Assembly (NCBI GenBank): GCA_044892525.1
Contig: CM097885.1
Span: 144,212,001-144,276,000 of the forward strand
DNA: 64,000 nucleotides
Direction: 5' to 3'
From: Schmidtea polychroa
Lineage: Eukaryota
The notes beneath the pieces are model-generated. The model worked only from the letters and a program-made list of their open reading frames with translations, was not told where the DNA came from and searched no databases. The translations under genes and the position numbers were made by a program. Positions 429-64,000 of this stretch are shown piece by piece. The first letter of the stretch is position 1, and each line of letters begins with the position of its first letter.

Positions 429-935
429 TCAGTTATGGTTGAAAGCCAACCTATGAATCATTAATTTATGATCTTTAAATTCTTTATCACTTAGACCTTT
501 TATATATTCAGAATCAGTATTAAAATATTTAAGTTCTAAACATATAGGATTAAAAACTTGAGAACATAAAGGTTTCTCGATTTCTCTCTCGGGATAAATA
601 ATTTCAACATTAAAAATATCAAGATCAGTAATCTTTGTATCATATAACTTATTCAACTTTTCTAGATTTTTTATTATAGGGATTAAATTATTTCCAATAG
701 GTAGAGTTGTCTTTAAATCACTTAGTATGAATCTCTTATCATCATAATTTGATAATGATACTTTTTGAGATTCTATCAAGTGAATATCATGGTTTTCACT
801 TTTAAGTTGATGTATTTCATCAATTTTATCTTTATGATTTGGATTCAATGTATCTATATAATCTTGATGAGAAAGATTCTTTGCAACTGATTTCTGTATT
901 CCTTTACATCTGTTATCCTTACGGGTTTTTCTTCT
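429..935 (-). CDS. polB: C-terminal (thumb) portion of the same pPolB, in the -1 frame
   Basis: This frame is open from 935 to 429 and reads RKDNRCKGIQKSVAKNLSHQDYIDTL...HQLKSENHDIH...KVSLSNYDDKRFILSDLKTTLPIG. That matches the typical pPolB C-terminus (KGV...H..Y...L; K.ALS..DDKR.I...TL..G). Joined product about 1426 aa. Confidence 0.9.
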   Translation of the reverse strand, partial: RRKTRKDNRCKGIQKSVAKNLSHQDYIDTLNPNHKDKIDEIHQLKSENHDIHLIESQKVSLSNYDDKRFILSDLKTTLPIGNNLIPIIKNLEKLNKLYDTKITDLDIFNVEIIYPEREIEKPLCSQVFNPICLELKYFNTDSEYIKGLSDKEFKDHKLMIHRLAFNHN

Positions 936-3900
936 TTAGGAAATATAGGATATCTATGTGTAATGGTTTCTTCTGTTTCTGGAGTTTTAAATATAAATGA
1001 TCTAGTTATAAATTCAGGGTTTCTAAATGTTTCGTATGAATATTGTTTAGCACGAATAAATATTCCATTTTCTATAGGAGTAAAAGGTTTTTCATCTTTA
1101 AACGAAAATAGTTCTCCAGATGAATTTATTAAATTTGAAAGTATAGGATTTTCTTTCATATCTTTTTGTAAATCATGAGTTCTTATTGTTAAAAACATTG
1201 AATCTGTATCCATTGCATGCATTGATATATTTGCTCCGTATATAGGTTGTAAGATGTTATAATATGTTTCATACATTTGTAATTTTGAAAGTTCTAAAAT
1301 TGTAAACCCTATAAATATTGGTTTGTTATATGTTTTCTCATAATTTTTTAATTCTACTGCAGTAAGATTTTCAGAAAATACTTGTGCGTTTTTAAATGTA
1401 GGCTTTCCTAGCATGCGATTATAACGCTTAATATCTTTGGTAGTATTTGTTAGGAGTACAATATGAGTATATTTATCAACATTCTCCATTGTTTTCCCAA
1501 ATACTGAATTGTTTAAAATTTTATAATTATTATCTTTAAAAAGCTTACCTTCTCTTTTTGCAATGTTTCGACACCTAATGTTCTCCTCGATAAAAGCTTT
1601 CATGAATGGAGCTTGTTTAAATCTTATGACACTATGAACTTTTTTTAATATCATTCCTCGTGAGAGATAAAATTGGAGGAGTCTATAGTGACAAAGATAA
1701 AACCTTCGATCTGTTTGATCACAAAGAAGTTTCATTGTTGGAGGTTTATCTTGTGAGATTTGCCATTCAGAAAGTTCGTTGATATCAATCTTTCTTCTTA
1801 TGGGAGCTAAAGGAAAATATCTTGTTCCTGATTTTATATCATTTGGATAGTCGAGGTCACATTCTATAAAGTAACCTATTGGAGAATCTTTCGATGTTGA
1901 AAGTATTTCTTTCATAAGGTCATCTGTTGGGTTCTCTATTTCAGTGAAATCACTCATTGGTAAATATTGAGTCATAATTCCTGAATATAAAGCTGTTGCA
2001 TCTATATAAAGTATAAATATAGGATTTTTCATTGTTTCTAATAATTCTTTTAATTCCTCATTGTTAATTTTCATATATGGATCATCAGGGTGTTTAGATA
2101 GTCTTCGGCTAGTAGTTATTGCATTTCTAGCTTTTATTTCTCTATTCCCCATTACTGAAGAGACTCCTCCTCTAATGTTTGTTTTAATTTGGTTAAACAT
2201 ATCGAGGTTAGTTAAAAGATCTATAATTTTATCAGCATCTTCTATATTTGAAGTCCAAATGGTATATAACATAGTATCCCAAGCTAAAGAGGGTGCAGTT
2301 ATATAATTATAAGGTTTAAGAACAAAAGAGTTTGTAAATTCTTCAAAGCAATCTGCTAGAATATAAACATCTAAGGATAAATACATGTTGGTATATTCTC
2401 CTAAAGTTTTACACTTGAATAATTCCCACATTTTTAATGCTCGAGAATATTCTTGATCTTTAATCCCTGATTGTAGTAAGTTTGAAAAGAAATCTTCTTT
2501 GTTAGGAAGACTTGTTTGATTATATCTTTCAAACGAGTCAACATAGTCATAAGGATATATTCCTTTTGCTAAACATGTAGGATATTCTTCTAGAGGAATA
2601 TTATTTTTTTCCAAGAATTCTCGAGTGATTTTAAAATCTTCTGGTTTCATTGTTTTAGCTACTGCATCTAGAGACATTTGGAGAAAGTTTAACGAGTCTA
2701 TAAATTTTAATTTCCCATATTCAACTGATTTATATTTTTCTTTTGTTAAGCCGATAACTTTGAAAGAGTTTTTAGCATTTGCTGCTAAATGTTTAATAAA
2801 TAGATGTATGTCATATCCAAAAAGATTATGAAATATAACAGGTATAAATTTAGGAGTATGGCAATTAAGATTGCAATTTTTATGAGCTGCTCCTCGATAA
2901 TTATTTTCCTTTTTTAAATGATCATGATCTATAACTTTTTCATCAGGAAGAATATTCTGTTTACACATCCAACAGTTGGAAGTATTTTCATATTCTTGTT
3001 GTTGTTGATTAGAAATATTTTGAGGATACTTTGTTTTTAATATTTTAAATATTTCATGTTCTAGATCATTTATATTTTTAGTAAAATGATTCAAGACTTC
3101 TTCAGGGGTACCTCCTAGAATTGAATATTCTCTAGATTCTATGAGTTCAGGATAATTACTTTTAAATAATAATTTATAAGCAGATGGTAATTGTTTAGTT
3201 TTTTTAACACTATTAGGTTTATTTCTTTTTCTTAGAAAGGCTTTCATCCTCTCTGGTTTCATCTTCTCTCCTGAGGAGTTCCATAAATCCATGAGTTTAT
3301 TTTTTTCTATTATTTTTAAATATTGATAAACCAAATCTTGTTTATGGTTTATAGATTCAAAGTCACCATAAAGAACTCCAACTGTTTGTAGTAAATTTGA
3401 AAAGTTTTTAAAATACATCTTGGGATTATTAGGCATTTTAATTAAAGCTGGATCATCTTTTTCACAAAATCTTGTATGTTTAATCATAGAGTTTTTAGTT
3501 GTTGAATAATGAAGACATCTTTTACATGTTCCTCCTCCACTAGTTGGATTCTCTGGAGATGTAAAAGCTTGAAAGTTTTTTATTAAAACATAATGTTGAT
3601 TATTTTGTTGTTCCAAGATTAAAAGATATATCTCGTTGTCCTGTGCTCCGTTATCCTTGGTTCCACTATCTGAAATATAAATTGGAATAATTTCTTTCCC
3701 TATAACATGTTCATAAATATTAAGTTTAAGATTATTTAATTTTTCAAATTCTGGAATGTCTTCTAGTTTCATTGGGTGTTTGAATCCTTTGGGAAATATT
3801 AATTCATTTTCATATTGTTTGTATTTTGAAACTCTTTGGGGATTTGTTGCTTGAGGATGTAAATGTGCAAGTATTGACCAGATGAAACATTTGTTATCAT

Positions 3901-4708
3901 TATTCTGTACATTTATAACATTTCTAGATTTAAAGGGTGTAGGAATATAAGATTTAGGATTGGGTGGTAATCCTCTCCAATAATCAATCACTAAAGTTTG
4001 GAAAGAGTTGAATACTAAGTTTGAATCTCCTAATTCATTTTCTACTTCCTCTTGTTTTGCTTCTGCTGCTTTAATTATTTCTTTGATGGTTTTATCAAAT
4101 CCTTTAATTGAAAATAAATATTTAAAAGGTATTCCAATTTCAACATCTAAGGGTGTTGTCTTTTCTTCTGCTCCTCGCCAGTATTTTGCTTTGATTATAA
4201 TTTTATATTTTATAACATTATACCTTGTCGGTTTATAATTTTTTAAAGCTTCAGTGAAAGAATTTTTAATATTTTTTTTATTTTTATTTATATATTCTCC
4301 AGGAGTTGCAGGCCCATTAATTTTTAATTGAAATTCATCTATATGATTAAAATTATCCCAGTTATATTTTTCTCTTTCAACATGATCAGGTTCTCCTTCT
4401 GAATGACATTCCTCATCGTCAGAATTTTGTTTTTTATTTTTACATTCTTTTATATGTTCTAAGTAATAGAAATTTAGTTTTGTTGAAAAGTTACAATGAG
4501 GACATGTAAATATTTCTCTATTTTTCCCGATACAATTTTCAAAATGTTTATTATATCCAGAATGTAGAAATCTTCCTTTACATTTAGGACAAACTTTTGA
4601 ATTTGTATCATTAAGATTATTTTCTTTTAATAAATGAGCTTTCGATTTTAAGTGAGAAATTAATCCAGTTTTATTTTTAAAAACTTTATTGCAAATATTA
4701 CAATTCAT
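854..4708 (-). CDS. polB: Protein-primed family B DNA polymerase of a Polinton/Maverick (pPolB2-type), main ORF of 1284 aa
   Basis: N-terminal Zn fingers (CxxC...H...H, CxxC...H...C); vOTU-like NDNKCFIWSI...QHYVLI; ExoI YGDFES; EndoVII/HNH insert CWMC...DHDH...YRGAAHKNCNL; ExoII FHNLFGYD; ExoIII YLSLDVYILAD; polymerase motifs LYIDATALY, KILNNSVFGK, MDTDS; FIRAKQYSY. Confidence 0.95.
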   Translation of the reverse strand: MNCNICNKVFKNKTGLISHLKSKAHLLKENNLNDTNSKVCPKCKGRFLHSGYNKHFENCIGKNREIFTCPHCNFSTKLNFYYLEHIKECKNKKQNSDDEECHSEGEPDHVEREKYNWDNFNHIDEFQLKINGPATPGEYINKNKKNIKNSFTEALKNYKPTRYNVIKYKIIIKAKYWRGAEEKTTPLDVEIGIPFKYLFSIKGFDKTIKEIIKAAEAKQEEVENELGDSNLVFNSFQTLVIDYWRGLPPNPKSYIPTPFKSRNVINVQNNDNKCFIWSILAHLHPQATNPQRVSKYKQYENELIFPKGFKHPMKLEDIPEFEKLNNLKLNIYEHVIGKEIIPIYISDSGTKDNGAQDNEIYLLILEQQNNQHYVLIKNFQAFTSPENPTSGGGTCKRCLHYSTTKNSMIKHTRFCEKDDPALIKMPNNPKMYFKNFSNLLQTVGVLYGDFESINHKQDLVYQYLKIIEKNKLMDLWNSSGEKMKPERMKAFLRKRNKPNSVKKTKQLPSAYKLLFKSNYPELIESREYSILGGTPEEVLNHFTKNINDLEHEIFKILKTKYPQNISNQQQQEYENTSNCWMCKQNILPDEKVIDHDHLKKENNYRGAAHKNCNLNCHTPKFIPVIFHNLFGYDIHLFIKHLAANAKNSFKVIGLTKEKYKSVEYGKLKFIDSLNFLQMSLDAVAKTMKPEDFKITREFLEKNNIPLEEYPTCLAKGIYPYDYVDSFERYNQTSLPNKEDFFSNLLQSGIKDQEYSRALKMWELFKCKTLGEYTNMYLSLDVYILADCFEEFTNSFVLKPYNYITAPSLAWDTMLYTIWTSNIEDADKIIDLLTNLDMFNQIKTNIRGGVSSVMGNREIKARNAITTSRRLSKHPDDPYMKINNEELKELLETMKNPIFILYIDATALYSGIMTQYLPMSDFTEIENPTDDLMKEILSTSKDSPIGYFIECDLDYPNDIKSGTRYFPLAPIRRKIDINELSEWQISQDKPPTMKLLCDQTDRRFYLCHYRLLQFYLSRGMILKKVHSVIRFKQAPFMKAFIEENIRCRNIAKREGKLFKDNNYKILNNSVFGKTMENVDKYTHIVLLTNTTKDIKRYNRMLGKPTFKNAQVFSENLTAVELKNYEKTYNKPIFIGFTILELSKLQMYETYYNILQPIYGANISMHAMDTDSMFLTIRTHDLQKDMKENPILSNLINSSGELFSFKDEKPFTPIENGIFIRAKQYSYETFRNPEFITRSFIFKTPETEETITHRYPIFPKEEKPVRITDVKEYRNQLQRIFLIKII

Positions 4709-4812
4709 TTTTAGAAAAAATTTTTTATTGGATACCCTGTTTTCATTTTATTTTTTAAGATTTATATTATTCATTTTTTATAATAAAAATTTAAAAAATG
4801 ACAAAAATCCAA

Positions 4813-4895
4813 TCCTAGATAGCGCAGTGGGCTAGACCGGCACCGTGGTTCAAAATGCTAGCGGTTCAAATCACATCTGAGGTTAGTTTTTTTTT
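4813..4895 (+). ncRNA. Candidate Pol III small RNA, unit 1 (tRNA-like promoter, no cloverleaf)
   Basis: A-box TAGCGCAGTGG (4820-4830), B-box GGTTCAAATCA (4863-4873), T9 terminator (4887-4895), terminal stem CCTAGAT/ATCT(G)AGG. GC island in an A/T background. Confidence 0.5.
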
Positions 4896-5060
4896 CAACA
4901 TAAAATAATATTAAAAATTTGAAAATAATATTGAAAATAGTGTGGGTATCTTAGATTTATATTTTATTTTATTTATTTTTATTTTATTTTATTTTATTTT
5001 ATTTATTTTATTTATTATTTTATTTTTTAAACATAAATATGAAAAAAAAAATATTGAAAC

Positions 5061-5155
5061 GGGTGATGGTGGCGAACCGGTAATTATCGCCACCTGTCTT
5101 TCGAACACCCCCGGATCGATCCCGGTAATGTGCACATTTATTTCTCAGTTGTTTT
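5061..5155 (+). ncRNA. Candidate Pol III small RNA, unit 2 (tRNA-like, lacks acceptor stem)
   Basis: A-box-like TGGCGAACCGG (5070-5080). D-arm GCGA/TCGC, extendable to the 8-bp stem GGTGGCGA/TCGCCACC. 7-nt loop CTTTCGA (TTC centre) on a 3-bp stem. T-arm CCGG-ATCGATC-CCGG (5111-5125). First T4 at 5152-5155. Confidence 0.5.
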
Positions 5156-5158
5156 CGG

Positions 5159-5423
5159 ACCTCTTTCGCATTCGCTTTCGAATTCATTTGTACTTTCGAG
5201 CAGCACGCTTAAAACGCCGTTGAAATCGACTTCGTGAGCGAGAAGCGAATAATAAGGTGTGCTGCTATTATCGAATTGATTCTGATTATGAGCCTGGCCA
5301 GCTTGTATATTGGAAGAGATTTGATAAACGAAAGAGGTTGAATAAAAAAAAAATGATCCGGATCAAAAAAAACTGTTGAGAGGACAGTGAAAAAAAAAAA
5401 AAAAAAATACCACTGTCCTCTCA
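5159..5423. other. GC-enriched segment with several exact complementary blocks (structured RNA or DNA)
   Basis: 5159-5168/5329-5338 (10 bp), 5170-5177/5243-5250 (8 bp), 5199-5206/5259-5266 (8 bp), palindrome TGATCCGGATCA (5354-5365), 13-bp hairpin 5377-5389/5411-5423 around an A-run. Confidence 0.55.
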
Positions 5424-6101
5424 GAGCAGTTTTACTATTTTCATAAAATTTTTTATTCTTCAAGACATCAAGATTAAGATTTCATTTATTTTTTTTAATT
5501 AGCCAATTAGCAACTTGCTAGTTGGCATCCTCAAGTAGCCTTCTAACTTTTTCATAATACCATTTTCTTTTCTATTCTCTTTATGTTTTTAGTTTGAAGC
5601 TTTTGAGTTTGAGGCTTTAAAGATTAAAACAGTTAGAGTCATTAAGGGTGGTTGTTTTCAAAATATAGGGTTAAAATACTATAAAAGTATAAGTTTTAGG
5701 TTGTTTTTCTAATGGTTTAAGTGAAATGGAGGCATGTTTTGTTGGTAGGGCTGTTTTGGTTGGGTATATAACCACACTACTAAGATTTGGAAATAAGACA
5801 AAAGGGAAATGATTTAAAGCACACAGTGGATAAAGTAGAAATAGAATAAGCAAAAAGGTGAGAGAAAATAAACGAGAAATTAAAGAAAATAAATAAAAAT
5901 AAAACCATCTTTAAGTCTAATTAAAACAAAAAATTATAGTACAATAAATAGCAATAAATCCGCAGAAAAATAGGAGAAAAATAAGAAAAATAAGAAAATA
6001 AATAAAATAATAATAAGAAATAAGTTAAGTCATTAAAGTCTAATATATTATAATAAAAACATAAAAATAATAATAAATAATGAAATTACAAACAAGTCGC
6101 G

Positions 6102-36269: not shown

Positions 36270-36950
36270 GTACTCTGCGAAAAAATAAGGCCTGTATTCC
36301 ATCCGAATTTCTGCTAAACCAAAAACGGTAAACACATTTAACTTTATTTGGTTTTCAAAAAAATATTACTATTGCATCGCATGTACCCAAGCCAGGTAAT
36401 GAAATAATTTTTTTGTCAACAATGTACCATGACGACACGATGACCGAAAATAAGATAAAGTTATGTCGGAAATAAATAAATATTATGATTTAAGCAAAGG
36501 AGGTGTTGATACTTTTGATCAACTTATTCACGAATATATGATAAAGAAAACAACTAATCGTTGGCCATTAGCCTTTTTTATGAATATACTAGATGCCGCT
36601 GGAAAAGCTGCATATGTTCTGTGGATGAAACAATTTCCGTATTGGAAACAAAGGAAACCCAACATTCGAAATTTATTCCTACGTGAATTGGATGAATCTC
36701 TAGTTGAATCTTACATAAGAAAGAGGCAAAATAGCAAAAACTTACACCAATCGTCCCAAAGTGCAATGAAAACTTATCTTGGAGCTTTGACTACTGAAAG
36801 TTCTTCTAGCAGACCTTCAACTTCCACTTCAGGTGAAAGCACCCGAAAAAGGAAACGGTGTCATTTGTGTCCATACGCAAAATCCAAAATGCAGAACAAT
36901 GCTGTGATAATTGCCAAATAAAATGTGTGTAATGAACACTGAATAAAAGC
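36270..36950 (+). pseudogene. piggyBac transposase, C-terminal half with frameshifts
   Basis: TLRKNKACIPSEF...FGFQ...FLSTMYHDD, then YYDLSKGGVDTFDQ...RWPLAFFMNILD and the C-terminal Cys-rich domain RCHLCP...CCDNC...VCNEH. Confidence 0.85.
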
Positions 36951-51253: not shown

Positions 51254-53488
51254 TTAATGAGACTGAAACCAGCTCTTTAAAAATACAATAGCATTAATAG
51301 CTTCATCTCGCATTCTGGTTCTAAGTTTCGATACCACAATTCCAGAAGATGAAAATGCTCGTTCACTCTCGGTTGACGTTGGTTTAACTGTTAGCAGTGC
51401 ATTATAAAGTAAATCCAAATTTCGTGATCTTACTCCAGTGGCTTCATAAATTTGGAATTCTTTGTTGAGCGAATTAAAATTATCACCATTAATTGGGATT
51501 GAAGGAGCTTGACTTTTTGTGATTGCTAAATTTAACTCATCGGCAATTGATGTAGGTTCAGGTTCAACACGAATGACTACAATTTCATGGTTTTCTTCAT
51601 TGTTACTATGTTGCACATTAACTTCTTTTAAAAATAATCGTTGCATTAGTTCTTTGGCATATGATAATGTAATGGTTCTAGGTGAATAAGAAAACCATTT
51701 GTTGTTTTCTTTTGATGCTGATAAATTATGCAGAAACCTCAATATTGATACCATTGCTTTATTTCTTCTCTCATTTATACGTTTGAGTAAAATTTCTTGA
51801 AATTTTATGCTTAATTCAGATTTTTCTTCCGCTAACTTATTAAGTAAAAATATAACTATCGTCTCGCAAGTTAATAATGTAGCATCTTTTCTGCTTAGTG
51901 CTAGAAGTTCTAGACGTCTAGACAATGCATTGACTGTTGACCTTGAATGGAAAGCGGTCGCGTTGTGTGGCATGTTGAGCAAAGGCTGTCCATTGATTTG
52001 CCTAGCATATGATGCGTAAATGTCGGGTTAAGACGATTAAATGACGCGAGACAGGTCAATTCAGAAAAAATTGAGAAAAGAACGCTGAATGACGTGTTTT
52101 CTGGTTCTTAATGACGGGAAAACCCGTCATTTTTTTAACAGTGAACTTTAAGTTTTACTGAAAAACAGTTAAAAACAGTTATGAAAAAACAGCTGTTTGC
52201 TGTTTTTGATTTTTTGACGAAAAAACAACTGTTTTACTGTTACTGTTAAACAGTATCCAGAAACCCTAGCCTAGAACCGCAACTTTTAAAGGAGCTAGAA
52301 CTGCTAACATATTTTTAAGAGTGGTAATATTGATTTCACAAATTTTATCAATAGCATTTAATTCAATTAAACTGTTTTTATGCAGCTATATAACATTAGA
52401 AATCTTTCGATCATTGCTTCAAGAGAATTCCATCTGGTTTTAATATCTCTTATCAAACTTATTTCTTTTTGAAATTCTTGTTTCACGTATCGCTGTAAAA
52501 TGCTATTTTTGGTGGGTGACCGTCTAAAGAAATCCACGACCTTACGAATTTCTGTTATTGCTTTTTGGTAATTGGGTAGAAGAATAATGCGGTGCTCTTG
52601 TTCGGTTTCAATTTCAACAAATATTTCACCATCATCAAATTCATCATATGATTCTGATTCTGAATCTAAAGTATTTGGATCACATATTTCTTCTTGATAA
52701 ATATGTTTCTCGTTATTTTTGTAGAACATATCCATCACAGCTAAATGAATAGCATGATTCATACATTGAACATGGTGTGTTGGATTCTCACGCCCAAACT
52801 TACACATAACACTTGCACCATCAGTGGTTGATGCAACAATATCTTTTGCAAATGTGATACCAAATTCTTTTAAATGTTTGTCTACAATTCTTTGAGTTTC
52901 TATGGCATCACAACCTCCAATTATTCGAACCATCCCTAAATTGAAAAAAACCAAATCATTACAATGAATATTTATATTGAAATATCGTTTATTGGCTAGA
53001 CTTGTCCATTCATCGAGCGTTAGACTGAATCTTTCACTACATTTTATTCTTACATTTAACCTTTCAATTGTAATAATTTTTTGTTCTTTAAAATAAGAAA
53101 TTAATAAATCCATTACTTTTGCCGGATTTTTGGGTAAAGTATATCCTTTATCAGAAATAGATTGCCTTATAAAAGAACTTTTTGTTATTCCATTTACTGT
53201 GAAACCATCCTCAGAAACTAATCTTGCTACAATTTCATTAAGTTGTTGTTTTTTCGTGGTAACAAAATTTAAAATACTTGAACTGGTACATATTTTTTTT
53301 GAATTGAAATTGGAGCTGTCTTCTGTCATGCGCTTGGCAGTAAGATCCATCATATGTTTCAACTTTAAATGATTTAACATGGGAGTTGTAGTAGATCCTT
53401 TGCAAGTTACCTTATGTGGACATTTTGTACAAAAGGCCTCATCTCCATTTCTTTTAAAATACTTCCAAACTTCAGCCCGATTACTCAT
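51254..53488 (-). pseudogene. hAT transposase (BED finger, DDE, dimerisation domain), about 620 aa when repaired
   Basis: VWKYF...CTKC...HLKLKH, LTLDEWTS, TTDGAS, CMNHAIHL, TRWNS, PTSTESERAFS. Broken by a 1-bp frameshift near 52370 and an insertion at 51907-52270. Confidence 0.92.
51907..52270. mobile_element. 364-bp insertion inside the hAT transposase
   Basis: Flanked by duplicated CTAGAA (51901-51906, 52271-52276). Removing it restores ...KVAVL-ALSRKDATLL. Right end AAACCCTA is a hAT-like terminus. Confidence 0.7.
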
Positions 53489-54278: not shown

Positions 54279-55306
54279 TTATTTAAAAACACTCAACACA
54301 CAAGAATTTACTGCATTCTGCACATTAATTTTCGGATTCAATGATTTTATCAACAACGCCTCACAAATCACACGTTCCCAATAATTATCGAAGTTTTTTA
54401 ATAAAATTTTAAAATCAGACATACCTATTTTAATCTTTCAGCCCTTATTGTGCTCACCAACATAGGTCAAAGACTTCGGTCTACAATGTTCTCGAGCTCG
54501 AATACAGAGATGACGGGAAGTCTCTCCAATGTATGTGGCATTACACCCATTACATGTAAACTGATAAACGAGATCGGAACACAATTCAACCGGAGTTTTT
54601 GACTTATTAATTAACATATTGCGTACTTTCCATGAAGTTGACACTATCCTAAAGTTTAAATTCCCTAACTGCTTTCTTATCTTCACTTTATAATCCTTAA
54701 AACCTTCTGAGTACGGCAATACTAACACAAATTTAGGCTCATCATCTTTGCTCACACTATTTAATTTATTTAACTCATCAGACTCACACACCTCAACAAA
54801 ATCACACACAGATTTCAACTCATCAGACTCACACATCTCAACAAGATCACACCCAAATTTTCTCAAACATGGATCCTTAGGATTTTTAATAAATTTGTCA
54901 ACAGTCTCTTTCACCATAATTACTAAAAAGGATTTTGAATAACCATTCTTCATTAACAGTTCAACCAATATGTCAACACTTTTTACTGAATTTTTAAAAG
55001 TAGAAGACAAAGACCATGCACGGTAAATCAACCCCTTCACCATATTTCTTTTATACTTGAATTCACAAAAACTTTCGGAAGAAGTATAGAGACCAGTATC
55101 AGTTGGTTTTCTATAAATCTCTTTCTCATAGTGTTTCTCTTTGCGTTGTATTAACAGATCCAAGAAAGCAAGCGATGATTTTTTCTCCGTTTCACACGTG
55201 AATACAATGTTTTTATGTAGACTATTCATATAATGCAAAAACGGGTCAACATGCCTCTGATTTTCAAATATAAGAAATATATCATCCACATACCGTTTAT
55301 AAACAG
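54279..55306 (-). CDS. Penelope-like retroelement RT/GIY-YIG ORF, 3' part (5' part in gap), one premature TGA at 54438-54440
   Basis: YKRYVDDIF, FLD, YRKPTDTG, VYQFTCNGCNATYIGETSRHLCIRAREH. The frame continues past the TGA as DFKILLKN...ICEALLIKSLNPKINVQ to TAA at 54279-54281. Confidence 0.92.
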
Positions 55307-55499
55307 NNNNNNNNNNNNNNNNNNNNNNNNNNNNNNNNNNNNNNNNNNNNNNNNNNNNNNNNNNNNNNNNNNNNNNNNNNNNNNNNNNNNNNNNNNNNNN
55401 NNNNNNNNNNNNNNNNNNNNNNNNNNNNNNNNNNNNNNNNATAATAATTAAATGCATTTAAATAAATTTTCATCTTTTTAATTATCTATGCTTTTATGA

Positions 55500-59748: not shown

Positions 59749-60214
59749 GTTTATTCATGGGTGTTGTTACAAGTTTTCTGAGAGTAATCAAGACAGAAAA
59801 TTGCAGATTTTGTTGAGAAATTGCTTGAGAGCTACTGTAGTTTAAATTTAATAATGTCCCCAATGCTCATCACCTATGCTCATCATGTGGTTAAATGGCA
59901 AACTTTATTAAGGTAGGCGAAATGAAGAAATTATAAGTACAGGTATACATCGGTAATACGGCGGGTATGTTGCCAGACCACCGCCGCAATACGGGTCACT
60001 TGCTTTTTCTTCACTCGCTACAACATATAAACACCTTAAAACTTGTTTACAGTATCATTTATTATTTACGCAATAGTGCTAGGCTAAAACTAACAGTTTC
60101 AATTTAAAAATAAAATACGTAATGAAGGGTAAATAGTAGTAGGATGTGAGCTCCCCAGACCATGTCCCCTCCAGATCACATATACCCCCCCCCCGGGAAA
60201 AAATTTTATTTTTT

Positions 60215-61038
60215 TTTTAGAACGATGCCTAATATTTTTAGAACTATTACGTAATCAATGCCTAATATTTTTAGAACGATGCCTAATATTTTTAGAATGA
60301 TGCCTTATATTTTTAGAACGATTACGTCACATTTTTAGAACGATGCCTAATATTTTTATCATACGATGACTCATCACATTTTTAGAACAAAGACAATGAC
60401 TCATCATATTTTTAGAACGATGCCTAATATTTTTAGAATGATGCCTTATATTTTTAGAACGATTACGTCACATTTTTAGAACGATGCCTAATATTTTTAT
60501 CATACGATGACTCATCACATTTTTAGAACAAAGACAATGACTCATCATATTTTTAGAACGATGACTCATATTTTTAGAACGATGCCACATATTTTTAGAA
60601 CGATGCCTAATATTTTTAGAATGATTACGTCATACTTTTAGAACGATGTCTAATATTTTAGAACGATGCCATATTATTATTTTTCAAAAATATTATTAAC
60701 TGTGCTGGCGGTGACCTACCTTTTGACTTCCCAGAACTTTTTGAGTTTTCAAAATTATTTGAATATTTATACATCATTTTGAAGACCAGACGGAGACAAA
60801 TCTTTTGAGCTATCGAAATAATTTTTATCACTAGTGGTATAAAGGTTATTAATTTTTTAGTCCGACACTGATTGATGAAAAAATTATTATTTTCAAAAAT
60901 ATTTTTAGAATGATGCCTATTATTTTTAGAACGATGCCTAATATTTTTAGAATGATGCCTAATATTTTTAGAACGATGCCTAATATTTTTAGAATGATTA
61001 CATCATACTTTTAGAACGATGCCTAATATTTTTAGAAT
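60215..61038 (+). repeat. Minisatellite of about 19-22-bp units ATTTTTAGAACGATGCCTA(AT)
   Basis: Dozens of variant units, interrupted by a unique segment of about 190 bp near 60695-60885. Confidence 0.95.
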
Positions 61039-61176
61039 TAATAATTTTGTTTTAATTATCGATGATTATATAATTTTGTTTAAATCATTGATTATATAAT
61101 TCTTTTGTTTTAATTATCGAATACGTAATAATATAATTTTGTTTAAATCGTTGATTACATATTATTATTTTCTAAG

Positions 61177-61179
<3 letters not shown>

Positions 61180-61253
<74 letters not shown>

Positions 61254-61392
61254 CTCCTAGTCTATCCGACAAGATATTCTGTCCCCTTAAGGGTAATGGT
61301 CACAAAGGTACTACTCACATTCAACAAGTCACAAATGTACTACTCACATTCAACAAGTCACAAGGGTACTGGTCACATTCAACATGTCGTAA

Positions 61393-61428
<36 letters not shown>

Positions 61429-61789
61429 TATTATTACGCGCACGGGGAATATTATTATCATATATACTCTTAATCTATCCGACAAAATATTCTATCCCTT
61501 TATGGGTATTGCTCATATGGGTAATGGTCAAAGGTGTACTACTCACATTCAACATGTCTCAAAGGATATAATATAATTATTATTAAATTCTGACCAACTT
61601 AAATCAATGAAGGGGTAGAACAAAATATATTACGTTGCGGTATTTTAAATTTAAAAATATTTTAAAAACTTATTTTGACACTAAAGTTTACTTAATTAAC
61701 AAAGACATAATTATTGCACATGCTTTGCATAAATATTATTATTTTTTAAATTTTCAATATTTTCTTTTAAAGTATTAACACGCGCGGGA

Positions 61790-61864
<75 letters not shown>

Positions 61865-62362
61865 GTTAATGAAAAATCTAAAATATGGTTTACACACACA
61901 ACCCCTCAACCATTATTATTATTATCAATATTAAAAACCTAAAATATTTTCTACACACACACACATGCACAACTCATTAACCATTATTATTATCATTATT
62001 AGTGAAAACCTAAAATATTTTTTACACACACACACAACCCATTAACCATTATTATTATTATTATCAATATTAAAAACCTAAAATATTTTTACACACACAC
62101 ATACAACTCATTAAACTTATTATTATTATTATTATTATTGCAAATATTAGTCAAAAACCTAAAATATTATTTACACACACACAACCCATTAACAATTATT
62201 ATTATCAATATTAGTGAAAACCTAAAATATTTTCTACACACACACACACACACCACACATTAACCATTATTATTATTGCAAATATTAGTCAAAAACATAA
62301 AAACACTCATAAACCATTATTATTATCAATATTAGTGAAAACCTCAAATATTTTTTACACAC
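61180..62362 (+). repeat. (ATT)n/(TTA)n microsatellites, an ~80-bp module (TACTCCTAGTCTATCCGACAA...GGTACTACTCACATTCAACA) and ~65-bp ACACAC/CCATTATT units
   Basis: The ~80-bp module recurs at about 61250, 61460, 62650 and inverted at about 63780-63860. Confidence 0.9.
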
Positions 62363-62513: not shown

Positions 62514-64000
62514 ATTTTTACATACTAAGTTATGGGGTAGAGTATTATTATGTTTGCAGTATTCTGTGTTTGCCTTTACAGGAAGTTGTCAATAAGGAGC
62601 GATAATTTTACACACACATTCTATATACACATACCTTGTTTAACATGGGTGTATATACTCCTAGTCTATCCGACAAAATATTCTGTCCCCCTATGGGTAT
62701 TGCTCACAAAGGTACTACTCACACTCAACATATCGCAAGGGTATATTAATTATGGTTAGTAAATAAAACCTATCACACACACTTTTATATTTAAACGATA
62801 AAAATCAAGACAAGAGAAGACAAGGCAAAGTTAATGCATTTAGTATTGCCAGGCCTAATGAGCAGTGACCAAATATCTGTGCCTGAAAGACACGGTGGAT
62901 ATTTGTTCGCGTCCACAAGGGTCGTCTGTGCCTCCCCCAAGTGGGGTCAGAAGAACCTGGGCATTATAGTTTTCCGTACGGAACATTACGCCTAGCATGG
63001 GTAGTCAACTACCAGCACATTCGAAACGTATAATTTCAAAATACATGCGTCATTGGCACTATAACCAAATTAATTAATGTTTTCACTAACACAAATATAT
63101 ATTTACAGAGGCCTCCCACTAGTTGGATTACAACCGCCCACCATGACGATCAGCTTGTAAATATATATTAATTAAGGGATAAAGAGGACCCACCCAACCC
63201 TATTATATTTAATTTACAAATTTTTCTCGCTCTTCTGCTGGTATTCTATCTCAAAATTATCATCTCCATCGGGCCATTTGGAATACATCTTGCGAATTGG
63301 ACATATTTCTTAGTTTCTGATGTGGCGTCAACTATCATTGCTAAAATTTATATTGATTTAAAAGCAATTAACTTACATTATCTAGCATTTTATCGTCACA
63401 GGATTGATAAATATATATTTGTGTTAGTGAAAACATTAATTAATTTGGTTATAGTGCCAATGACGCATGTATTTTGAAATTATACGTTTCGAATGTGCTG
63501 GTAGTTGACTACCCATGCTAGGCGTAATGTTCCGTACGGAAAGCTATAATGCCCAGGTTCTTCTGACCCCACTTGGGGGAGGCACAGACGACCCTTGTGG
63601 ACGCGAACAAATATCCACCGTGTCTTTCAGGCACAGATATTTGGTCACTGCTCATTAGGCCTGGCAATACTAAATGCATTAACTTTGCCTTGTCCTCTCT
63701 TGTCTTGATTTTTTTTTTCGTTTAAATATTAAAGTGTGTGATAGGTTTTATTTACTAACCATAATTAATATACCCTTGCGATATGTTGAGTGTGAGTAGT
63801 ACCTTTGTGAGCAATACCCATAGGGTGACAGAATATTTTGTCGGATAGACTAGGAGTATATACACCCATGTTAAACAAGGTATGTGTATATAGAATGTGT
63901 GTGTAAAATTATCGCTCCTTATTGACAACTTCCTGTAAAGGCAAACACAGAATACTGCAAACATAATAATACTCTACCCCATAACTTAGTATGTAAAAAT
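62514..64000. repeat. Long imperfect inverted repeat, arms of at least 590 bp
   Basis: 62514-63105 is the reverse complement of 63408-64000 with a handful of substitutions and indels. Confidence 0.97.

Follow-up and report, generated by a model that had tools for sequence, protein, structure and literature searches.

Introduction

To our knowledge, Mavericks (Polintons) are usually described as protein-only, virus-like transposons. The described systems closest to the locus reported here are Pol III-transcribed RNAs of dsDNA viruses, namely the VA RNAs of adenoviruses and the TMERs of murine gammaherpesvirus 68 (MHV68). VA RNA has a length of approximately 160 nt and consists of a terminal stem, a central domain and an apical stem (PMC7589676). 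In promoters of this type, the two internal boxes, A and B, recruit TFIIIC and TFIIIB, and runs of at least four T residues terminate transcription by Pol III (PMC7589676). In the TMERs, a leaky stop is placed ahead of the first hairpin (PMC4337559). Among transposable elements, Pol III promoters are carried by the TRIMp3 retroelements; the passages dealing with these in PMC10946416 mention neither Mavericks nor Polintons. In a search covering mainly open-access papers, we found no literature on a Pol III structured RNA gene in Mavericks.

Here we analyse a 64-kb stretch of DNA (referred to as the window), in which a preliminary description had placed a candidate VA-RNA-like small-RNA cassette opposite the gene for a protein-primed DNA polymerase B (pPolB).

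Results

The Maverick and its ends

The cassette resides in a complete Maverick of 15,173 bp (G000:C1:144202609-144217781), which crosses the left edge of the 64-kb window. Both the gene set (pPolB, integrase, ATPase, protease, major and minor capsid) and the structure (long terminal inverted repeats, AG...CT ends, a 6-bp duplication and a size within the 15-20 kb range) are those of a Maverick/Polinton. The pPolB gene (854-4708, minus strand) is an ORF of 1284 aa matching DNA_pol_B_2 (PF03175, E 6.8e-10). Its N-terminus contains a C2H2 zinc finger, for which the Pfam entry zf-met scored above the cut-off (E 1.3e-5) and zf-C2H2_jaz below it. Capsid homologues bear PF21738; the ORFs that we take to encode the integrase, ATPase, protease and minor capsid were named from motifs and not by a profile scan; the N-terminus of the presumed integrase shows a CxxC...H...H finger.

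The right terminal inverted repeat (4792-5781, not assigned to a strand) is 990 bp long, and its inverted twin, located 13.2 kb away, is 99.8% identical. The termini of the element are AGTAGT/ACTACT: the right repeat finishes in ACTACT and is followed by the 6-bp target-site duplication AAGATT (5782-5787), the same 6 bp flanking the left terminus. The cassette constitutes the inner 640 bp of the 990-bp repeat and is therefore present at both ends of the Maverick, facing outward. Between its RNA gene (see below) and the terminal segment lies a perfect short hairpin (5502-5526, z -6.0).

At the left end, an 89-codon helix-rich ORF (L031:3553-3822, minus strand) runs into the repeat, its stop codon being placed just past the A box of unit 1; this ORF is missing from some Maverick subfamilies. 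The possibility that the cassette serves mainly as its 3' UTR was rejected, since three loci (L034, L037 and L038) contain the cassette without the ORF. Two others (L033 and L039) have an additional ORF between the capsid gene and the end, which appears helix-turn-helix-like by eye.

The host genome is AT-rich, comprises 781 Mb and encodes an SRP RNA of metazoan type. Its tRNA and SRP genes form long tandem arrays of one type (864 pattern matches for Trp and 1,001 for Cys-type), and its candidate loci for Maverick capsids number about 3,300. Elsewhere in the window there are near-perfect inverted arms of 306 and 267 nt (at 62514-64000 and 60209-62362), adjoining tandem repeats and possibly representing a second fold-back element, as well as ORFs (36463-36921, 51254-53488 and 54438-55457) judged by eye to be piggyBac-type, hAT-type and reverse-transcriptase/GIY-YIG fragments.

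Two promoter units

As stated in the preliminary description, two tandem GC-rich islands lie opposite pPolB; their boxes and T-runs could be located, and position 4813 is 105 bp from the pPolB ATG. Boxes were scored against consensus sequences (A, TRGCNNARYGG; B, GGWTCRANNCC), with at most one mismatch allowed per box. Unit 1 (4813-4895, plus strand) consists of an A box (4820-4830, no mismatch), a B box (4863-4873, one mismatch) and a T9 run (4887-4895). The internal, type-2 promoter of unit 2 (5070-5123, plus strand) has its A box at 5070-5080 (one mismatch) and its B box at 5113-5123 (no mismatch), and a T4 run follows at 5152-5155. The distance between the starts of the A and B boxes is 43 nt in both. 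These are the sole A+B+T units found by the consensus scan on either strand of the 64 kb, and composition shuffles of the two islands produced a unit at equal stringency in only 6 and 4 of 20,000 cases. The sequence features of a type-2 Pol III gene, i.e. internal A and B boxes, a workable spacing and T4 or a longer run downstream, are all present.

The earlier statement that neither island forms a complete cloverleaf was also confirmed, in that ARAGORN finds no tRNA in the cassette. The units match no Rfam family, and no VA RNA match was obtained up to E 5 and E 10. Folded alone, the islands resemble their shuffled counterparts (z +1.28 and -0.42); the box scan detected no separate promoter for the segment downstream of unit 2, and the T4-free stretch within unit 2 is not unusual (39% of shuffles have one). 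The tRNA-like 5' module of the window copy scored no better against three host tRNAs than shuffled sequence did. An origin of unit 2 from SRP (7SL) RNA was rejected, 183 of 500 shuffles scoring equally well against the host SRP gene.

Copy number and linkage to Mavericks

Genome-wide, the intact pattern of A and B boxes with their spacing occurs 2,826 times for unit 2 and 2,925 times for unit 1, while the controls gave 0 matches. The cassette as query retrieved 30 loci and unit 1 alone gave 40 matches, of which 20 were fetched; all 30 and all 20 run on into Maverick sequence. The preliminary description had named a dispersed SINE as the observation that would overturn it: none of the 50 fetched young copies lies outside Maverick ends, i.e. 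there are no solo copies among them. A tRNA-derived SINE was rejected on this ground and because 12 of 19 older copies (see below) adjoin integrase sequence.

Its further expectation, that sister Mavericks would share the cassette, holds in part. Among 20 capsid loci picked for diversity (capsids 90-97% identical), 12 have the cassette within 3.5 kb, and 8 are without it at the end examined; six of seven such loci inspected show short, unrelated ends. The cassette is thus widespread among Mavericks, yet not universal. The cassette-free group includes L036, L039, L042, L045, L049 and L052, in which capsids 90-93% identical are combined with unrelated ends of 240-300 bp, themselves flanked by inverted AGTAGTG/CACTACT motifs; a TAGCAA...TTGCTA motif, resembling the hairpin at 5502-5526, precedes the short ends of L042, L045, L049 and L052. 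Maverick ends and the cassette appear to be interchangeable modules.

Beyond this genome, viral contigs gave 0 confirmed loci. Fifteen metagenome loci whose capsids are 31-52% identical contained no A+B+T unit, though most of these loci are too short to extend to an element end.

An older Maverick lineage carrying the cassette

A divergent match from the genome-wide count of unit 2 led to an older family of the cassette. A search for this family gave 41 matches at 20 loci, of which 19 are old (70-82% identical to the older query) and one, excluded from the counts, is young. In this lineage the cassette is located inside the element and faces the integrase gene, the end of the RNA falling approximately 35 nt ahead of the integrase start. 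The integrase start lies directly downstream in 11 of the 19 copies, and integrase sequence is adjacent in 12; the integrases concerned are 38-60% identical to that of the window Maverick. A unit-1 homologue is found upstream in 8 of the 19 and a short terminal repeat in 4. In further lineages, the divergently oriented neighbour of the cassette is pPolB (L230) or the capsid gene (L231).

No Maverick context was seen in the flanks examined of 7 of the 19 copies, and long flanks contained no Maverick gene in 16 of 20. The variant free of such context gave only 9 scattered matches, and a sequence resembling an integrase start follows two of the four newly examined. The linkage to pPolB proposed earlier stands as linkage to Mavericks, while the partner differs from the one proposed: the cassette is tied to the element ends in the young lineage and to the integrase gene in the older one, not to pPolB per se.

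Unit 1 and its relatives in the rDNA spacer

As the preliminary description would lead one to expect, the A and B boxes are conserved: in unit 1 they are kept while the remainder drifts. Among 74 young copies, shared variation within the boxes is limited to A versus G at the R position and to one change toward the consensus; none of the 22 box columns has a shared consensus-breaking variant, compared with 22 variable columns among the 52 others (Fisher p 1.5e-4). Six older homologues also retain the boxes, with an A-B distance of 42-44 nt and, in five of the six, a T-run, and their interiors are identical at just 8-14 of 32 bases. Unit 1 is tandemly duplicated in many copies. It is likely, judging from this pattern, that unit 1 is a promoter-only helper derived from a tRNA, and we consider it very likely that both units bind TFIIIC and are maintained by selection.

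The host A box of tRNA-Cys is found exactly in L178, and the host tRNA-Cys B box in L174 and L230. A single parent tRNA for unit 1 could not be upheld, as Trp and Lys score alike (four isotypes were compared overall). Older unit-1 variants, whose boxes are tRNA-Cys-like, align with a unit of the rDNA spacer at z 6.6-8.5, against values up to 5.0 for four host tRNAs, and this spacer unit retains the D and anticodon arm sequence of tRNA-Cys.

The host rDNA intergenic spacer contains tandem tRNA-like units, spaced at approximately 240 bp and antisense to the rRNA genes. A 486-bp piece in the left arm of the window Maverick (G000:C1:144203858-144204344, in L031; also L107:7852-8591) is 92-94% identical to this spacer and bears two additional A/B/T units. 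Since many sister elements are without the piece, the transfer was likely from spacer to Maverick. In 29 stretches of the rDNA region (one rDNA type), the only direct match to unit 1, unit 2 or the hairpin segment is a Maverick inserted beside the array; a spacer origin of the hairpin segment was rejected on this basis.

Unit 2 and its predicted RNA

The preliminary description had set a 260-bp pairing-rich segment apart from the two units. The segment is real and structured, and it ends at 5433 rather than 5423 and appears to belong to the predicted gene of unit 2. This predicted RNA gene (5061-5433, plus strand; the start is inferred) ends in a T4 run (5430-5433), with a backup T4 at 5438-5441. 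The stretch 5061-5434 folds with z -7.8 on the plus strand versus -4.3 on the minus strand, and the plus strand also out-folds the minus strand in L231, L168 and L174. The structure begins at the promoter and finishes at the T4.

On the plus strand, a predicted leader hairpin (5068-5094) is followed by a domain closed by the helix 5159-5168/5329-5338, which encloses hairpins H2 (5199-5266) and H4 (5268-5327). H2 has a covarying stem and an apex conserved in sequence; H4, with 60 nt and 24 bp, is G.U-rich and of pre-miRNA size, with a mean pair probability of 0.97. The terminal hairpin H3 (5369-5433, z -8.6) has an A-rich loop and ends in the T4. The linker 5152-5200 comprises 4-5 repeats of a CTTTCG-type word, the number of which differs among lineages. 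Most of H2 is deleted in L037 and L040, and in two old copies folding does not exceed that of shuffled sequence (L230, z -0.5; L159, z -1.3). Self-targeting by the hairpin arms was rejected: no match of at least 12 nt to the genes of the element was found.

The internal T4 (5152-5155, plus strand), a possible leaky terminator that would give a leader RNA of approximately 95 nt in the young family only, is free of shared variants among the 63 young copies. In three older copies (L231, L230 and L168) the terminal T4 is the first one, L174 has an internal T4 at another site, and in other, decayed older copies T4 runs occur at scattered positions. T4 is also the first T-run of the host tRNA-Trp and tRNA-Cys genes. 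Given this usage by the host and the invariance in the young family, much of the transcription may stop at 5152-5155.

Covariation was assessed in 21 copies (5 young and 16 old), with the fold of the window copy (75 predicted pairs) as the reference. Pairing is possible in 88.9% of cells, as opposed to 37-44% in slid controls. Covariation was found: 16 of the 75 pairs change on both sides, a number reached in 11 of 500 shuffles, and counted by cell there are 49 two-sided changes, reached in 0 of 500. Since the structure is that of the window and the copies come from few lineages, these counts reflect few events; decay of the copies is a further limit. Two-sided change affects 5 of 9 pairs of the H2 stem, whose strands are 44-48% identical to those of eight older copies, versus 84% for the apex; in H4 the pair-keeping changes are 3 two-sided and 11 one-sided. 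RNAalifold, applied to 13 copies, recovers H2 and H4 unaided.

In the 63 young copies, 13 shared variants fall at paired positions. The pair survives in 11 cases, all of them in the four long stems and all via G.U pairs of the plus strand; the two variants that break it are both in small apical helices. One H3 pair (5381:5419) shows an A-U/G-C exchange passing through G.U. Paired columns are no less variable than unpaired ones in the young copies (13/161 vs 9/118). The fold is preserved between the inward-facing internal site of the older lineage and the outward-facing repeat of the young one. Unit 2 and the pairing-rich segment thus behave as one predicted gene, 5061-5433.

Discussion

The reading that we prefer is that unit 2 is a Pol III gene for a multi-hairpin RNA of approximately 370 nt, which would engage the small-RNA or dsRNA machinery of the host, with unit 1 as a promoter-only helper; we give it a probability of about 0.5. 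Its components differ in strength. Transcription of unit 2 from approximately 5061, past the internal T4 and on to 5433, together with action as RNA, is probable. The boxes of unit 2 would load TFIIIC and TFIIIB and so direct synthesis of the RNA, from which, in the young family, a side product of approximately 95 nt would branch off at the internal T4. The RNA might then serve as a decoy for the host small-RNA/dsRNA-binding machinery, or as a hairpin precursor. Such a counter-silencing role is proposed because H4 and the U-tailed H3 resemble Dicer substrates, and because TMERs and VA RNA make use of small-RNA/dsRNA pathways; provided that an RNA is made, the chance that it counters silencing, with H4 and H3 either processed in a Dicer-type manner or sequestered, is by analogy close to even. 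Unit 1 and the units derived from the spacer could add Pol III loading sites or a barrier in cis, and for unit 1 we lean towards a mainly cis-acting role, either loading of Pol III factors beside unit 2 or shielding against silencing.

The same RNA could instead serve the cycle of the element, as a scaffold or regulator to which the integrase or pPolB binds, with a part in replication, in packaging or in controlling a neighbouring gene. A conserved apex on a covarying stem, as in H2, is what is seen in protein-binding RNAs; the older lineage brings the end of the RNA close to the integrase start; and both candidate proteins carry fingers, that of pPolB matching zf-met and, below the cut-off, the dsRNA-binding zf-C2H2_jaz. 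Sister subfamilies with near-identical proteins, however, have no cassette at the end examined, L037 and L040 dispense with most of H2, and the tie to the zinc fingers is an inference only, so that we regard a role in the element's own cycle as unlikely. A purely cis function on DNA, with a TFIIIC-bound barrier at both ends and hairpins formed in single-stranded DNA during strand-displacement replication, would account well for unit 1, whose boxes are kept while its body is not and which is often duplicated, and for the acquisition of two more units from the spacer by the window Maverick. It has a precedent in the B-box inverted repeats of fission yeast, which, occupied by TFIIIC without Pol III, delimit a chromatin domain (PMC7474672). 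For unit 1 taken alone, a cis role is the favoured reading. As an explanation of the whole cassette it is rather unlikely: both boxes are kept together with their spacing and the T-run, which goes beyond the needs of TFIIIC binding, the stems are G.U-rich on one strand only and change via G.U, and a structure delimited by the promoter and the T4 has survived both the move and the reorientation of the cassette.

The preliminary description had predicted two discrete RNAs of 80-95 nt. Short products probably do arise, given the strong T9 of unit 1 and the invariant T4 of young unit 2, but as the main, VA-like output, with the downstream segment as a separate entity, they are improbable: neither folds above chance, the interior of unit 1 drifts and retains no conserved body, older copies have no T4 at that site, and the scan shows no separate promoter for the segment, which together with unit 2 behaves as a single 370-nt candidate gene. 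The least probable reading is that of a neutral passenger, i.e. a SINE, a tRNA pseudogene or a scrap of rDNA spacer carried by a successful transposon. The recent spacer piece in the left arm, the 7 of 19 older copies without Maverick context and the cassette-free subfamilies would fit it. The absence of solo copies among 50 young ones, the conservation of the boxes (p 1.5e-4), the covariation across lineages and the lack of direct matches in the 29 rDNA-region stretches besides the inserted Maverick argue against it, as does the scarcity of the context-free variant (9 matches, with two of the four newly examined preceding an integrase-start-like sequence). We consider the passenger reading largely refuted.

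If our preferred interpretation of unit 2 is correct, a conserved structured RNA gene would represent a missing layer of Maverick biology, and Pol III RNAs would have arisen anew among dsDNA viruses of the branch related to adenoviruses. The interval 5061-5433 provides an exact, high-copy target for studying how Mavericks evade RNA silencing, and the tRNA-like units common to the rDNA spacer and the Maverick suggest that Pol III promoters have passed between rDNA and a DNA transposon. It is tempting, though doubtful at present, to go further and suppose that Mavericks of animals encode a conserved Pol III RNA, an independent counterpart of VA RNA and the TMERs that dampens silencing, that its abundance (approximately 2,800 genes) aided their expansion, and that extra units of tRNA type are still being recruited from the host rDNA spacer to drive or shield it.

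Several known systems share individual features with the cassette. The TRIMp3 retroelements Cassandra, Helenus and Ajax likewise have a Pol III promoter of small-RNA origin in both terminal repeats, and likewise borrowed from tRNA or rDNA, according to the relevant passages (PMC10886601, PMC10946416). Non-coding RNA genes have been reported within Polinton-related genomes, those of polinton-like viruses and virophages; in the sections concerned, these are Rfam or ARAGORN matches taken to be working tRNAs, whereas the units of the cassette pass neither tool (PMC12220804). The IR-L and IR-R repeats of fission yeast resemble the cassette as B-box inverted repeats placed around a domain of 15-20 kb; they are described as binding TFIIIC without Pol III, in contrast to the complete A+B+T units and the candidate structured transcript found here (PMC7474672).

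VA RNA I and II, to which the cassette was originally likened, have in common with it the intragenic A and B boxes, a T4 with a backup, wobble-rich stems, the tandem arrangement and a lineage of the pPolB type (PMC7589676). The likeness does not extend beyond the type of promoter and the T4 to the RNA itself, as length, fold, central stem and Rfam match all fail: unit 2 is approximately 370 nt long, with a predicted multi-domain fold (374 nt) whose 5' and 3' ends are unpaired, and GGGU/ACCC pairing, which in VA RNA forms the central stem, occurs in unit 2 only at the 5' end, where it is not conserved. Unlike the VA RNA genes, moreover, the cassette sits in a terminal repeat or ahead of the integrase gene.

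The TMERs of MHV68, also invoked in the preliminary description as a tRNA leader followed by hairpins, fit better. They combine a tRNA-type leader containing an internal promoter with hairpins and alternative T-run stops, several units being clustered at the genome end of a dsDNA virus (PMC4337559), and unit 2 likewise has hairpins after its leader and alternative T-run stops. The analogy fails in the leader, which does not fold as a tRNA (ARAGORN and Rfam were both negative); without a cloverleaf, release by RNase Z as in the TMERs is doubtful. It is also limited by the context, since H2 and H4 of the cassette form part of a multibranch domain in a candidate RNA, predicted from sequence, of approximately 370 nt, encoded by an integrating Maverick present in about 2,800 copies. 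The cassette is a real, selected feature, in which a theme of viral Pol III RNAs seems to recur in a Maverick lineage.
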